This document shows, in pieces, positions 1 through 4,987 of a stretch of 4,987 nt of DNA. Each line of letters starts with the position of its first letter. The first letter of the stretch is position 1. Location of the stretch: IMG/VR virus record IMGVR_UViG_2690316166_000020; one strand, given 5' to 3'. The notes beneath the pieces were generated by a model. It searched no databases. It saw only the letters and a list, made by a program, of their open reading frames with translations, and was not told the DNA's origin. The translations under genes and the position numbers were made by a program. This stretch comes from a virus (taxonomy: Duplodnaviria; Heunggongvirae; Uroviricota; Caudoviricetes).

Positions 1-28
1 ACACTATCAATAAGTTGGAGTCATTACC
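1..28. repeat. Left copy of a perfect 28-bp inverted repeat (partner at 4957-4984)
   Basis: Read directly: 1-28 acactatcaataagttggagtcattacc is the exact reverse complement of 4957-4984 ggtaatgactccaacttattgatagtgt. The match breaks inward at 29/4956. Outward extension cannot be tested because the left copy starts at window position 1. Confidence 0.95.
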
Positions 29-410
29 CGTTAAAACATCTGCAGATAATGACGTTGACTTGGATACAGATGGATTCAGACAACTGAGGATATCGTGCCC
101 ATCCCCTTCTGCCAGCGGTGCGATTATATTGAGAAAAGCTTCTTATGAATTCGGCAAAAGTATAGGTGTATTTGATTTTGCAAACAATGCATCACCAGCG
201 ACGATGACATTTTTGATCCCAATATATAAAGATGATGATTTTGATTCAGATACTGTTGGTTTTACATTTGCGTTCAAGATGCCAAGAGGCCAGTTTTTTG
301 TAGATGTAAAAGAAAACGGGAATATCAGAGCTGGAGTTAATGTTAATGGCGAGTCGGGAGTGACCTACGAAAATTGCAAATTGAATATGAAAGATATTAA
401 TGATGATTAA
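3..410 (+). CDS. 3' portion (about 135 codons) of an AT-rich ORF of unknown function; the 5' end probably lies upstream of the window
   Basis: Frame 3 is open from the first full codon (pos 3) to TAA at 408-410. The track start at 15 is a TTG with no Shine-Dalgarno; the first in-frame ATG (204-206) also lacks an SD, so the gene most likely begins upstream. Hand-counted GC is about 35% versus about 60% in the downstream tail genes. The translation (...KDDDFDSDTVGFTFAFKMPRGQFFVDVKENGNIRAGVNVNGESG...) is beta-rich and acidic, with no motif I recognise. It is the only long ORF on either strand in 1-410 and is followed by a terminator. Confidence 0.55.
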   Translation, partial: TINKLESLPVKTSADNDVDLDTDGFRQLRISCPSPSASGAIILRKASYEFGKSIGVFDFANNASPATMTFLIPIYKDDDFDSDTVGFTFAFKMPRGQFFVDVKENGNIRAGVNVNGESGVTYENCKLNMKDINDD

Positions 411-416
411 TATATA

Positions 417-442
417 AGCCGCCAGAAATTGGCGGTTTTTTT
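417..442 (+). terminator. Rho-independent terminator downstream of the AT-rich ORF
   Basis: Stem 419-424 (ccgcca) pairs with 430-435 (tggcgg), 6 bp, with one or two extra closing pairs (418 G-U, 417 A-U). Loop is gaaat (425-429). A run of 7 T follows (436-442). It lies 7 nt after the TAA stop. Confidence 0.6.
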
Positions 443-456
443 ATAGTGGAGACAGT

Positions 457-1977
457 ATGGACTTACCTTCTTTACCTTCTCTTTCTTCACTCTTTTCTGC
501 ATCTTCAGGTATCAATTGGCGCGATAATCTTTACGACGCTTCATTTCGTGGCGTTCCGTTTTCGGTGGAGAGCGACGAGGGTTCGTTCGGACGCCGCGTT
601 CAGGTCCATGAATACCCAAACCGTGACAAACCGTACACGGAAGATCTCGGGCGTGCCACGCGACGGCTGACGATTAATGCGTATCTCGTTGGTGATGATT
701 ACGCAGAGCAGCGCGACAGGCTGATTACAGCGATTGAAACCGCCGGGCCGGGGACGCTGATCCATCCGCAGTTCGGTGAAATGCAGGGCTGTATTGACGG
801 GCAGGTGACCGTTTCTCACTCCGGCACTGAAGGCCGTATGTGCCGGGTTTCATTTCAGTTTGTTGAGAGCGGGGAACTGTCATTTCCGGTCGCCGGANNN
901 NNNNNNNNNNNNNNNNNNNNNNNNNNNNNNNNNNNNNNNNNNNNNNNNNNNNNNNNNNNNNNNNNNNNNNNNNNNNNNNNNNNNNNNNNNNNNNNNNNNN
1001 NNNNNNNNNNNNNNNNNNNNNNNNNNNNNNNNNNNNNNNNNNNNNNNNNNNNNNNNNNNNNNNNNNNNNNNNNNNNNNNNNNNNNNNNNNNNNNNNNNNN
1101 NNNNNNNNNNNNNNNNNNNNNNNNNNNNNNNNNNNNNNNNNNNNNNNNNNNNNNNNNNNNNNNNNNNNNNNNNNNNNNNNNNNNNNNNNNNNNNNNNNNN
1201 NNNNNNNNNNNNNNNNNNNNNNNNNNNNNNNNNNNNNNNNNNNNNNNNNNNNNNNNNNNNNNNNNNNNNNNNNNNNNNNNNNNNNNNNNNNNNNNNNNCT
1301 GGCGGGCCGGAACCCGGCTGGTGGATAACACACAGGATCTGGTGCAGTCCATAACGACAATGTCCGGCATTACGCTGGACCCAGGACTGGCACCGCGTGC
1401 GGTGTGGCCCACAGATTCCGCATCGGTTATCAGGCAAAAACAGCAGACAAACCTTGTGGCTGCTGTCATCCGGACGACGGCAATCAGCGAAGCCACAAGG
1501 GCGGTCACTTCACTGCCACAACCCGGAAGCCTGGTGAAAAATCAGCAGGCGGTTGTGGCTGTTGGTGGTTCCACTGAACGTCAGTCCGATATTATTCACG
1601 TTTCTCATCCGGCACTTGACAGCGTGGCAGCCAGCACAGGACAGGATGAGAGAGCGCAACCACCCACGCGGGAAAATCTCACCATCATACGCGAATCGCT
1701 GAACGCGGCGATTGAACAGGAGCTCAGGCGTACGGCGGATGACAGGCTGTTTTTTCAGCTGACGTCATTACGTACAGAACTGAACCGGGATATTCAGGCG
1801 CGTCTGGTTCAGACGGAGGAAACCGCAGAGCGAACGCCAGCGGAAGTTCTGCCTGCGCTTGTTCTGGCTGCGTCATGGTACGACGATGCGTCCCGTGAAA
1901 CTGATATCCTGGATCGAAATGCCATCTCTCATCCGGGCTTTGTTCCGGTCAGGGCATTAAGGGTACCCGTCAGATGA
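457..1977 (+). CDS. Mu N-like tail protein (DNA circularization protein family), 506 codons, internally masked
   Basis: ATG at 457 is preceded by GGAG (448-451) with a 5-nt spacer; the ORF runs to TGA 1975-1977. Visible parts are the N-terminal 147 aa and C-terminal about 225 aa (898-1298 masked). The N-terminal region (...DNLYDASFRGVPFSVESDEGSFGRRVQVHEYPNRDKPYTEDLGRATRRL...YLVGDDYAEQRDRL...GPGTLIHPQFG...) matches my recollection of the DNA-circularization N-terminal domain family of Mu-like phages. Length (about 500 aa) and position directly upstream of, and overlapping by ATGA with, a P-like gene fit Mu order N-P. No database search was possible. Confidence 0.75.
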   Translation: MDLPSLPSLSSLFSASSGINWRDNLYDASFRGVPFSVESDEGSFGRRVQVHEYPNRDKPYTEDLGRATRRLTINAYLVGDDYAEQRDRLITAIETAGPGTLIHPQFGEMQGCIDGQVTVSHSGTEGRMCRVSFQFVESGELSFPVAGXXXXXXXXXXXXXXXXXXXXXXXXXXXXXXXXXXXXXXXXXXXXXXXXXXXXXXXXXXXXXXXXXXXXXXXXXXXXXXXXXXXXXXXXXXXXXXXXXXXXXXXXXXXXXXXXXXXXXXXXXXXXXXXXXXXXXXWRAGTRLVDNTQDLVQSITTMSGITLDPGLAPRAVWPTDSASVIRQKQQTNLVAAVIRTTAISEATRAVTSLPQPGSLVKNQQAVVAVGGSTERQSDIIHVSHPALDSVAASTGQDERAQPPTRENLTIIRESLNAAIEQELRRTADDRLFFQLTSLRTELNRDIQARLVQTEETAERTPAEVLPALVLAASWYDDASRETDILDRNAISHPGFVPVRALRVPVR

Positions 1978-2666
1978 ATGATACCGTTTTACTTCGGGTT
2001 TCCGGTCGCGAATGGGGCGGCTGGACATCCGTCCGTATCAGTGCGGGCATTAACCGTATTGCCCGGGATTTTAATGTTGCCATTACCACCCGCTGGCCCG
2101 GAAGCCGGGATTATCAACCCCGGATAAAAAATGGTGAGCTGGTTGAAGTGCTTATCGGGGATGAGCCTGTGCTCACCGGATATGTGGAGGCACTACCGCT
2201 TCGTTATGACGCCAGCAGCGTCAGCATGGGAATTGTNNNNNNNNNNNNNNNNNNNNNNNNNNNNNNNNNNNNNNNNNNNNNNNNNNNNNNNNNNNNNNNN
2301 NNNNNNNNNNNNNNNNNNNNNNNNNNNNNNNNNNNNNNNNNNNNNNNNNNNNNNNNNNNNNNNNNNNNNNNNNNNNNNNNNNNNNNNNNNNNNNNNNNNN
2401 NNNNNNNNNNNNNNNNNNNNNNNNNNNNNNNNNNNNNNNNNNNNNNNNNNNNNNNNNNNNNNNNNNNNNNNNNNNNNNNNNNNNNNNNNNNNNNNNNNNN
2501 NNNNNNNNNNNNNNNNNNNNNNNNNNNNNNNNNNNNNNNNNNNNNNNNNNNNNNNNNNNNNNNNNNNNNNNNNNNNNNNNNNNNNNNNNNNNNNNNNNNN
2601 NNNNNNNNNNNNNNNNNNNNNNNNNNNNNNNNNNNNNNNNNNNNNNNNNNNNNNGCGGTTTTCTGA
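1974..2666 (+). CDS. Mu P-like baseplate/hub protein; start well supported, true 3' end uncertain (masked)
   Basis: ATG at 1974 overlaps the stop of the upstream gene (ATGA, 1974-1977). The visible N-terminal 87 aa (MNDTVLLRVSGREWGGWTSVRISAGINRIARDFNVAITTRWPGSRDYQPRIKNGELVEVLIGDEPVLTGYVE...) resemble Mu P / late-control-D-like tail proteins as I recall them. 2237-2654 is masked. The end coordinate 2666 is only the first in-frame stop in the unmasked island 2655-2739; the gene may really extend into the 2740-4235 mask (Mu P is, from memory, about 380 aa). Confidence 0.55.
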   Translation: MNDTVLLRVSGREWGGWTSVRISAGINRIARDFNVAITTRWPGSRDYQPRIKNGELVEVLIGDEPVLTGYVEALPLRYDASSVSMGIXXXXXXXXXXXXXXXXXXXXXXXXXXXXXXXXXXXXXXXXXXXXXXXXXXXXXXXXXXXXXXXXXXXXXXXXXXXXXXXXXXXXXXXXXXXXXXXXXXXXXXXXXXXXXXXXXXXXXXXXXXXXXXXXXXXXXXXXXXXXAVF

Positions 2667-4235
2667 ATATCAGGTCAGTGGGCAGCGCCCGGGCAACGAC
2701 GATGATTTTGGTGAGGCCACCATTGCCGCAATACGTCANNNNNNNNNNNNNNNNNNNNNNNNNNNNNNNNNNNNNNNNNNNNNNNNNNNNNNNNNNNNNN
2801 NNNNNNNNNNNNNNNNNNNNNNNNNNNNNNNNNNNNNNNNNNNNNNNNNNNNNNNNNNNNNNNNNNNNNNNNNNNNNNNNNNNNNNNNNNNNNNNNNNNN
2901 NNNNNNNNNNNNNNNNNNNNNNNNNNNNNNNNNNNNNNNNNNNNNNNNNNNNNNNNNNNNNNNNNNNNNNNNNNNNNNNNNNNNNNNNNNNNNNNNNNNN
3001 NNNNNNNNNNNNNNNNNNNNNNNNNNNNNNNNNNNNNNNNNNNNNNNNNNNNNNNNNNNNNNNNNNNNNNNNNNNNNNNNNNNNNNNNNNNNNNNNNNNN
3101 NNNNNNNNNNNNNNNNNNNNNNNNNNNNNNNNNNNNNNNNNNNNNNNNNNNNNNNNNNNNNNNNNNNNNNNNNNNNNNNNNNNNNNNNNNNNNNNNNNNN
3201 NNNNNNNNNNNNNNNNNNNNNNNNNNNNNNNNNNNNNNNNNNNNNNNNNNNNNNNNNNNNNNNNNNNNNNNNNNNNNNNNNNNNNNNNNNNNNNNNNNNN
3301 NNNNNNNNNNNNNNNNNNNNNNNNNNNNNNNNNNNNNNNNNNNNNNNNNNNNNNNNNNNNNNNNNNNNNNNNNNNNNNNNNNNNNNNNNNNNNNNNNNNN
3401 NNNNNNNNNNNNNNNNNNNNNNNNNNNNNNNNNNNNNNNNNNNNNNNNNNNNNNNNNNNNNNNNNNNNNNNNNNNNNNNNNNNNNNNNNNNNNNNNNNNN
3501 NNNNNNNNNNNNNNNNNNNNNNNNNNNNNNNNNNNNNNNNNNNNNNNNNNNNNNNNNNNNNNNNNNNNNNNNNNNNNNNNNNNNNNNNNNNNNNNNNNNN
3601 NNNNNNNNNNNNNNNNNNNNNNNNNNNNNNNNNNNNNNNNNNNNNNNNNNNNNNNNNNNNNNNNNNNNNNNNNNNNNNNNNNNNNNNNNNNNNNNNNNNN
3701 NNNNNNNNNNNNNNNNNNNNNNNNNNNNNNNNNNNNNNNNNNNNNNNNNNNNNNNNNNNNNNNNNNNNNNNNNNNNNNNNNNNNNNNNNNNNNNNNNNNN
3801 NNNNNNNNNNNNNNNNNNNNNNNNNNNNNNNNNNNNNNNNNNNNNNNNNNNNNNNNNNNNNNNNNNNNNNNNNNNNNNNNNNNNNNNNNNNNNNNNNNNN
3901 NNNNNNNNNNNNNNNNNNNNNNNNNNNNNNNNNNNNNNNNNNNNNNNNNNNNNNNNNNNNNNNNNNNNNNNNNNNNNNNNNNNNNNNNNNNNNNNNNNNN
4001 NNNNNNNNNNNNNNNNNNNNNNNNNNNNNNNNNNNNNNNNNNNNNNNNNNNNNNNNNNNNNNNNNNNNNNNNNNNNNNNNNNNNNNNNNNNNNNNNNNNN
4101 NNNNNNNNNNNNNNNNNNNNNNNNNNNNNNNNNNNNNNNNNNNNNNNNNNNNNNNNNNNNNNNNNNNNNNNNNNNNNNNNNNNNNNNNNNNNNNNNNNNN
4201 NNNNNNNNNNNNNNNNNNNNNNNNNNNNNNNNNNN

Positions 4236-4370
4236 GTTGCTTCCCGTCTTGATATTAACGCTGTCCGGACCGGGACAGACTCGCTGGCACTTGCCATTAC
4301 CATTTACCAGCGTGACGGCAATATTCACAACATTATTTTTGATGATATCTGGAGTGAACTGAATGGCTGA
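4236..4370 (+). CDS. C-terminal 44 codons of a small baseplate protein (possibly gp25/W-like wedge, Mu gp46 position); 5' end masked
   Basis: Frame 0 is open from the mask edge to TGA 4368-4370 (...VASRLDINAVRTGTDSLALAITIYQRDGNIHNIIFDDIWSELNG*). It is more protein-like than the alternative frame ending at 4362. The stop overlaps the start of the next gene by 8 nt. Family assignment rests on synteny (gene immediately upstream of a Baseplate-J-like gene) and a loose resemblance to gp25/W C-termini. Confidence 0.4.
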   Translation, partial: VASRLDINAVRTGTDSLALAITIYQRDGNIHNIIFDDIWSELNG

Positions 4371-4987
4371 CAGTCAGTTTTATCGCCCCGGCCTCCCGCA
4401 ACTTATTTCTATGATCCGGAGCGATTTATTAACCCGCTTTGAGCAGGATACGCTGCTTCGTCGTATGGATGCGGAAGTGTATGCCCGTGTACAGGCTGCA
4501 GCCGTACACACGTTGTACGGGTATATCGATTATCTTGCCAGAAATCTGTTACCGGACGTGTGTGATGAAGACTGGCTGTACCGGCACGCCAGAATCAAAC
4601 GCTGCCCGCGAAAAGAAGCGGTGGCAGCCCGGGGATTTGTGCGCTGGGATGGCGTAGAGGGGACGCCGGTATTGCCAGCGGGAACGCAGATCCAGCGTGA
4701 TAATCAGGTGACCTTTACCACGACGGCGACGGTGACCGCAGCCGATGGTCTTCTCCGGGTGCCTGTTGTGGCAGACGAACCGGGATCGGCGGGGAATACG
4801 GATGATGGTATTGCCATGCAACTGGGAACACCCGTCAGTGGTCTGCCGTCCACAGGGTACGCTGACACCATTACAGACGGTGAAGATATTGAAAATCTGG
4901 AAATATGGCGTGCCCGCGTTATGGAACGTTATTACTACATTCCACAGGGGGGCGCAGGTAATGACTCCAACTTATTGATAGTGTTTT
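4363..4987 (+). CDS. Baseplate J-like protein (Mu gp47 / P2 gpJ family), N-terminal 208 codons; continues beyond the right edge
   Basis: ATG at 4363 is preceded by GGAG (4351-4354) with an 8-nt spacer. My hand translation finds no stop through 4986 (MADSQFYRPGLPQLISMIRSDLLTRFEQDTLLRRMDAEVYARVQAAAVHTLYGYIDYLARNLLPDVCDEDWLYRHARIKRCPRKEAVAARGFVRWDGVEGTPVLPAGTQIQRDNQVTFTTTATVTAADGLLRVPVVADEPGSAGNTDDGIAMQLGTPVSGLPSTGYADTITDGEDIENLEIWRARVMERYYYIPQGGAGNDSNLLIVF). It is absent from the supplied track only because it has no stop in the window. The sequence is typical of the N-terminal region of Baseplate_J family proteins as I recall them. Confidence 0.75.
   Translation, partial: MADSQFYRPGLPQLISMIRSDLLTRFEQDTLLRRMDAEVYARVQAAAVHTLYGYIDYLARNLLPDVCDEDWLYRHARIKRCPRKEAVAARGFVRWDGVEGTPVLPAGTQIQRDNQVTFTTTATVTAADGLLRVPVVADEPGSAGNTDDGIAMQLGTPVSGLPSTGYADTITDGEDIENLEIWRARVMERYYYIPQGGAGNDSNLLIVF
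4957..4984. repeat. Right copy of the perfect 28-bp inverted repeat (partner at 1-28), lying inside the Baseplate-J-like CDS
   Basis: Exact reverse complement of 1-28. In the J-like frame it encodes ...GNDSNLLIV...; the left copy encodes TINKLESLP in the AT-rich ORF. Confidence 0.95.

Follow-up and report, generated by a model that had tools for sequence, protein, structure and literature searches.

The 4,987-nucleotide stretch of viral DNA analysed here (IMG/VR virus record IMGVR_UViG_2690316166_000020, referred to as 'the window') begins with an AT-rich open reading frame (ORF) that seems to run off its left edge. We find that bases 29-446 are the 3' four-fifths of a moron gene, carried by a prophage of the Shigella/E. 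coli lineage, and that a copy of the insertion sequence IS1 transposed into codons 34-37 of this gene, stranding codons 35-160 in the window. Taken as a whole, the feature is very probably an IS1-broken prophage moron that encoded a secreted beta-barrel protein. The evidence comes from the intact counterparts of the gene, from the IS1 copies at the window edges, from prophages with and without the gene, and from the protein family to which its product belongs.

The gene at the left edge is interrupted by IS1

An ORF scan of the window gave a frame that is open from base 3 to a TAA codon at 408-410, that is, 136 codons, and the motifs DDDFDSD and GVNVNGESG both lie within it. A megablast search with bases 1-897 returned 11 complete E. 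coli genomes matching bases 29-897 at 97.6 to 100% identity. In these 11 genomes, the AT-rich stretch is a 483-bp coding sequence (CDS) annotated 'hypothetical protein', placed between the tape-measure gene and gene N. The genome of strain FDAARGOS_944 (L001), in which the product is WP_000594909.1, was taken as the reference for the uninterrupted gene: the remnant in the window is 100% identical at the DNA level, over 382 bp, to positions 12001-12382 of L001, within the CDS located at 11900-12382. The intact CDS has a GTG start 8 nt past a GGAG Shine-Dalgarno sequence; it begins 67 bp past the stop of the tape-measure gene and ends 46 bp ahead of N.

The bases situated to the left of this match belong to IS1. 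They can be followed beyond the window in an IMG/VR contig that holds all four unmasked segments of the window exactly (L012). In this contig, a 768-bp element with insA and insB ORFs (5232-5999) is closed by the first 28 nt of the window. The same 28 nt terminate a copy annotated 'IS1-like element IS1B family' in E. coli PEC122, and the two elements are identical at 760 of 768 positions. The 9 bp that follow the element in the window, CGTTAAAAC, also directly precede its other end in L012 (...AGTAACGTTAAAAC / GGTGATGC..., the slash marking the boundary), and are present as a single copy in the uninterrupted gene of L001. The element thus has the features of IS1, namely a length of 768 bp, terminal inverted repeats, insA and insB, and a 9-bp target duplication. 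To the left of it, L012 retains the first 37 codons of the gene, which are followed by 6 IS1-derived codons and a stop. On the side of the window, L012 shows an in-frame stop within IS1, 4 nt before base 1. The apparent lack of a start is therefore a consequence of the insertion and its target duplication; with the start codon and the predicted signal peptide lost, the copy in this genome is inactive.

The tape-measure gene is intact, with a length of 649 aa (L001 9883-11832), and in L012 it is found immediately upstream of IS1 (3105-5054). The initial annotation had placed the fragment where the tape-measure gene would be expected, and had read it as the C-terminal domain of a longer protein encoded upstream. 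Neither statement agrees with a 160-codon gene that has its own start and Shine-Dalgarno sequence behind an intact tape-measure gene. Its remark that the fragment does not look like a tape-measure C-terminus was correct, as a separate stop codon ends the tape-measure gene 67 bp before the moron begins. It had also counted bases 1-28, the IS1 terminal repeat, as part of the gene, and had missed the IS1 ends present at both edges.

The right edge of the window was produced in the same way. Bases 1-28 are the exact reverse complement of bases 4957-4984, and in L012 the baseplate J/gp47 gene is interrupted by a second IS1 copy, which points the other way and is identical to the first at 767 of 768 positions. 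The window spans precisely what lies between these two inverted copies. As each of them still has its intact target duplication, nothing between them has been inverted or deleted. Each copy arrived by simple transposition into a prophage that is in decay, as the splitting of the baseplate J gene by the second copy indicates.

The exact junction between IS1 and the gene was not found among complete E. coli genomes, where every match begins at base 29. The sole junction-identical sequence found was the IMG/VR contig UViG_2874968258_000001. A scan of species-representative genomes returned intact copies only, in Shigella flexneri SFBU1023 and E. coli ECMA0423. An independent IS1 was observed in E. 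coli PEC122 (L078:1607-2374, NZ_CM168021.1), with the duplication GGACTGCCA, at about codon 14 of another allele of the moron, designated group 2 (50% identical). The AT-rich cassette has therefore been struck by IS1 at least twice. IS1 prefers AT-rich targets, and the repeated hits in the cassette fit this preference.

The gene is an optional cassette between the tape-measure gene and N

The cassette, of about 580 bp, consists of a 67-bp leader, the 160-codon ORF and an intrinsic terminator. Where it is present, 596 bp separate the tape-measure gene from N, compared to 15 bp in sister prophages, in which the whole stretch between the tape-measure stop and a point about 10 nt short of the N start is missing. 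Among the 198 E. coli genomes carrying this N allele, 11 have the cassette, and the approximately 187 others match the window from base 453 only; the 15-bp gap was also encountered in 18 IMG/VR relatives. Presence and absence differ between prophages in which the tape-measure C-terminus and N are 96 to 98% identical.

The composition of the insert departs from that of its neighbours, with a GC content of 36.7% (31% at third codon positions, GC3), compared to 52% for the tape-measure gene and 55% for N. A similar contrast was found for the alleles of five other sequences (L004, L036, L037, L040 and L042). At the right-hand end, the hairpin at 416-438 is followed by a run of T; folding gave -14 kcal/mol (z = -3.4), and an Rfam search with the hairpin yielded sub-threshold matches only. 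For the group-2 allele, a different GC-rich stem followed by a T-run was read by eye in the alignment, and the terminator scan made no call. The insert thus shows presence or absence at the junction, deviant base composition and a terminator of its own, which are among the criteria given for morons (Juhala/Hendrix 2000). These observations support the view that the ORF is a horizontally acquired moron. An accessory gene of this type was one of the three options offered by the initial annotation, and the foreign GC content, the 15-bp empty sites and the terminator bear it out; the compositional break that it placed at the junction between the terminator and the start of N is likewise located there, at a strong terminator shortly ahead of the N start at base 457.

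Other alleles were found in the same slot. A 50%-identical allele is carried by Escherichia phage vB_EcoM-720R4 and by 101 of 5426 E. coli genomes, a 74%-identical one is found in Yersinia enterocolitica, and alleles of 34 to 38% identity occur in other Mu-tail prophages. The slot can also hold an unrelated gene: in IMGVR_UViG_2189573020_000003 (L049:1872-2432) it is filled by an AT-rich gene (35% GC) for a 151-aa lipoprotein with a canonical LAGC lipobox (MKKALIILSCLFCLAGC...) and a terminator hairpin that resembles the one behind the window ORF. This gene had no PHROG or Pfam match, and was not found in the 5426 complete E. coli genomes.

More distant relatives (24 to 28% identity) lie away from tail genes, in phage-plasmid-like contigs, where their neighbours are genes for ParA, a cI-type repressor, IncFII RepA and toxin-antitoxin systems. 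From the cargo-like distribution, the reuse of the slot and the location of these relatives outside tail operons, we conclude that the gene is mobile cargo of temperate elements rather than part of the tail machinery. For three of the distant relatives (P0024, P0021 and P0020, in the Logan/NCBI contigs L034, L035 and L043), a common accessory region was seen, with ParA, a cI-like repressor, a RecA-dependent nuclease, DUF1064, and MazEF or Gp49/HTH toxin-antitoxin genes, to which IncFII RepA is added in L035. In these three contigs the GC content of the gene is 49 to 55%, not below that of the surroundings.

The product belongs to a small family of predicted exported proteins

A full-length match was obtained with phrog_5586 (E = 1e-88). 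The family is that of phrog_5586 and of the RefSeq 'hypothetical protein' WP_000594909.1, and the catalogue entries carry no function. It is a small one: an exhaustive profile search among 1.84 billion cluster representatives returned 19 hits. The small homologues, of 148 to 176 aa, are all stand-alone proteins, none of them fused to another domain. Complete homologues have their own apparent signal peptide, and two homologues are truncated at the 5' end. A receptor-binding or polymorphic domain joined to varied N-terminal partners, as the initial annotation had envisaged, is not what these proteins look like. Three long repeat proteins (P0018, P0019 and P0023, of 883 to 2363 aa) also matched the family profile, with E-values from 1e-6 to 5e-11. 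Their matches consist of 8 to 12 short stretches at profile positions of about 40 to 111, the motif 'SICxGxSYxFNG' being one example, and probably reflect weak similarities of repeats or composition that add up, and not fusions of the phrog_5586 domain. Literature searches covering the gene, phage vB_EcoM-720R4 and periplasmic exclusion beside tape-measure genes returned nothing on the phrog_5586 family.

The ratio of non-synonymous to synonymous substitution rates (dN/dS) was 0.08 to 0.10 when the E. coli allele was compared to that of Yersinia, and 0.2 to 0.4 for deeper pairs, for which dS is at or near saturation. A ratio of about 0.1 indicates a selected coding sequence where the gene is intact.

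All complete relatives have a K/R-containing N-terminus, a hydrophobic core of 12 to 18 residues and an A-x-A-like site followed by K or Q, from which we infer that the intact product would be exported by means of an N-terminal signal peptide. A lipobox, L-[TI]-S-C, is present in the Shigella/E. coli and Yersinia alleles only, the other alleles being without it. The Shigella and Yersinia alleles may, judging from this motif, be outer-membrane lipoproteins.

A structural model was computed with AlphaFold2 (AF2) from 14 diverse sequences. The mean confidence was 85.4 (predicted local distance difference test, pLDDT), with a predicted template modelling score (pTM) of 0.78; an earlier model based on 7 close sequences had a pLDDT of 43 and was discarded. 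The retained model contains a helix at residues 24-41 and eight beta-strands, in keeping with the beta-rich character that the initial annotation had attributed to the fragment. The model predicts a mature protein of about 140 residues, made up of one helix of amphipathic length packed on an eight-stranded antiparallel beta-barrel. The alignment shows that cysteines C57 and C150 are conserved family-wide, and a disulfide between them probably closes the barrel.

Features and composition of the window

The features located in the window are listed in Table 1.

Table 1. Position of the features identified in the 4,987-nucleotide window
Feature	Position	Strand	Evidence or comment
Last 28 bp of IS1, insB-side terminal inverted repeat	1..28	+	Body of the element lies left of the window
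9-bp target-site duplication CGTTAAAAC of the first IS1	29..37	+	
3' remnant (codons 35-160 and stop) of the 160-codon moron gene; pseudogene	30..410	+	Identity to L001; phrog_5586 match
Intrinsic terminator of the moron, GC-rich hairpin and T7	416..445	+	Terminator scan and folding; right edge of the AT-rich insert
Mu N-type DNA circularization/tail protein gene	457..1977	+	Annotated DNA circularization protein in matching genomes; length inflated by masking
9-bp target duplication GGGGGCGCA of the second IS1, in the baseplate J/gp47 gene	4948..4956	+	Same 9 bp beyond the IS1 at L012 10412-11179
End of the second IS1 copy, opposite in orientation to the first	4957..4987	-	

GC content is 37.2% across bases 1-446 and 37.4% across 29-410, where GC3 is 31%. 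In the unmasked remainder of 457-4956 it is 55.0%, and GC3 of N is about 54 to 55%. Runs of masked bases (898-1298, 2237-2654 and 2739-4235) make up about 46% of the window, so that the value for the remainder covers 2184 bases only. A contrast of 35% against about 60% had been proposed from a hand count; its direction holds, and its size was exaggerated. The masked runs do not preserve length, being 129, 73 and 314 nt longer than the corresponding segments of the identical contig L012. The lengths of ORFs that cross them are therefore artefacts, as for N, which appears to have 506 aa in the window and has 463 aa in L012.

The host prophage combines HK97-type head genes with Mu-type contractile tail genes, the order of the latter being sheath, tube, chaperone, tape measure, N, P, gp45, gp46, gp47 and gp48. 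We take this architecture to be similar to that of phage SfV. The prophage in L001 (E. coli FDAARGOS_944, 1-22916), the nearest one with an intact moron, is itself decaying, copies of ISEc60 splitting its portal and tail-sheath genes. Just past its tail-fibre genes lies a frameshifted gene for the type III secretion system effector ipaHe, which makes the 'E. coli' record of FDAARGOS_944 Shigella-like.

Possible function of the product

A role could be envisaged along the following lines. The cassette would form an independent transcription unit in a lysogen, ending at its own terminator, and the protein would act in the periplasm or at the outer membrane as a lysogenic-conversion factor. There, it would bind either a receptor or the periplasm-exposed part of an incoming phage tail, such as the tape measure, the spike or the tail lysin. 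During lytic growth, late antiterminated transcription would read through the terminator into N. Superinfection exclusion is the role that we prefer, tentatively and by analogy with HK97 gp15, T4 Sp or Cor/Llp; we hold it to be possible, short of probable. A review of morons gives precedent for the logic of such cassettes and for exclusion factors beside tape-measure genes (PMC3594210). It is doubtful that one can go further, and regard the tape-measure/N junction of Mu-tail prophages with HK97-type heads as a dedicated cargo slot in which genes for exported envelope proteins are exchanged, with the phrog_5586 family and its distant relatives on phage-plasmid-like contigs as a new class of periplasmic superinfection-exclusion proteins, which would neutralise a periplasm-exposed component of incoming contractile tails.

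Several points weigh against the proposal of an exported exclusion protein encoded by an autonomous cassette. The features of morons listed in the same review include a promoter of their own, and a consensus scan, which does not reach weak or non-consensus sites, detected no consensus sigma-70 promoter in the 67-bp leader of either allele; given this result, the gene might be expressed only within the late operon. The C-terminal alleles of the tape measure do not co-vary strictly with the moron, and a mechanism targeting the tape measure specifically is therefore not supported. The signal peptide and the lipobox were called by inspection, and the disulfide was deduced from conservation and strand order. 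Searches for relatives of the protein returned no family from Pfam, NCBIfam or PADLOC at E <= 10, chance-level matches only in a sequence profile search of the PDB, and nothing at E <= 0.001 with Foldseek against the PDB and BFVD.

The same IS1-broken moron could also have encoded a product of use to the bacterium, in its interaction with an animal host or under stress, for example a periplasmic inhibitor of lysozyme or of another enzyme that attacks the envelope, or a calycin-type barrel binding a small ligand, like the eight-stranded barrels of lipocalin and avidin. This is the main rival, and we consider it rather unlikely. The fold matches all have at most 11% identity, and are generic for eight-stranded barrels. 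Membership in the MliC/PliC family of lysozyme inhibitors was considered on account of the fold class and of a shared 'SASGA' string, and was rejected: profile-profile comparison (hhalign) gave a probability of 0.06%, the Pfam MliC family was unmatched at E <= 10, and the string, common to MliC/PliC, is found here in a different part of the barrel. A benefit to the host also sits poorly with a gene that is easily lost, as seen from the IS1 hits and the many empty sites.

Explanations in which the ORF belongs to the tail itself fare worse. A morphogenesis or injection accessory, such as a factor associated with the tail tip or the tape measure, would account for the constant position between the tape measure and N, kept by alleles down to 34% identity, and would have no need of the independent promoter that was not detected. 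However, a signal peptide would export such a product away from the cytoplasm, where tails are assembled, and the gene comes and goes among prophages with 96 to 98% identical tape-measure and N genes. On these two grounds a structural role is very improbable. The foreign composition, the terminator, the unrelated lipoprotein gene able to fill the same slot, and the relatives that have plasmid partition and repressor genes, and no tail genes, as their neighbours all point in the same direction. The reading as a variable C-terminal domain of some longer protein encoded upstream, be it a receptor-binding protein, a polymorphic protein or an unusual tape measure, was suggested by a frame that stays open as far as base 3 and lacks a credible start within the window; we now give this reading practically no credence. 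The stop codon inside IS1 closes the frame 4 nt beyond the window edge, the intact gene has 160 codons, a GTG start and a GGAG sequence, the tape-measure gene ends 67 bp ahead of it, and its small homologues (148 to 176 aa) stand alone, the only long hits being the repeat proteins whose scores are summed over short weak stretches.

Significance and comparison with known systems

The feature is of an ordinary kind, namely the gain of a moron followed by prophage decay via IS1 in a Shigella-type genome, and its analysis corrects a plausible misreading, that of an ORF seeming to run off the window edge. The phrog_5586 family itself deserves attention: it is small, confined to temperate phage elements, predicted to be exported, under purifying selection and without relatives of known function, and it recurs in one slot of the tail operon that can hold a different lipoprotein gene. 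If a role in exclusion or in host interaction were true, the family would represent a new envelope-acting prophage function, and the junction would merit a search for further genes of this sort.

Compared to phrog_5586 and WP_000594909.1, the copy in the window differs by its truncation by IS1. The protein is not a member of the MliC/PliC family (PF09864; PDB 2f09, 3f6z, 4mir and 3oe3): it is about 50 residues longer, with an additional helix at its N-terminus, and the SxSGAxY and TKG loop motifs of MliC are not aligned in it.

Several phages encode small envelope proteins to which the product can be compared. T4 Sp, which is helical, is a periplasmic inhibitor of the gp5 tail lysozyme, and T5 Llp and the Cor proteins of phi80 and N15 are lipoproteins that block FhuA. 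Like these proteins, and like Bor and Lom of lambda, the product is a small phage-encoded protein with an apparent signal peptide or lipobox, specified by optional cargo in or near the tail genes, and would act outside the cytoplasm. The likeness is one of logic and location only, with no sequence similarity; searches for exclusion and defence families (PADLOC, and the Pfam families for Imm, Cor, Llp, Bor and Lom) gave 0 matches at E <= 10.

The closest comparison is with gene 15 of phage HK97, a moron reportedly described by Juhala et al. (2000) and Cumby et al. (2012). Its product, gp15, blocks DNA injection by superinfecting phages (PMC3594210). The YebO-like HK97 gp15 is small and resides in the inner membrane; the product considered here is a predicted exported beta-barrel of about 140 residues, unrelated in sequence. 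Gene 15 lies upstream of the tape-measure gene, whereas the present gene lies downstream of it, and no promoter was detected here. The two nevertheless share their organization. Each is a small single gene of foreign GC content with its own terminator, placed in the tail operon beside the tape-measure gene and missing from sister phages, and each has a product directed to the envelope, as predicted in the present case.
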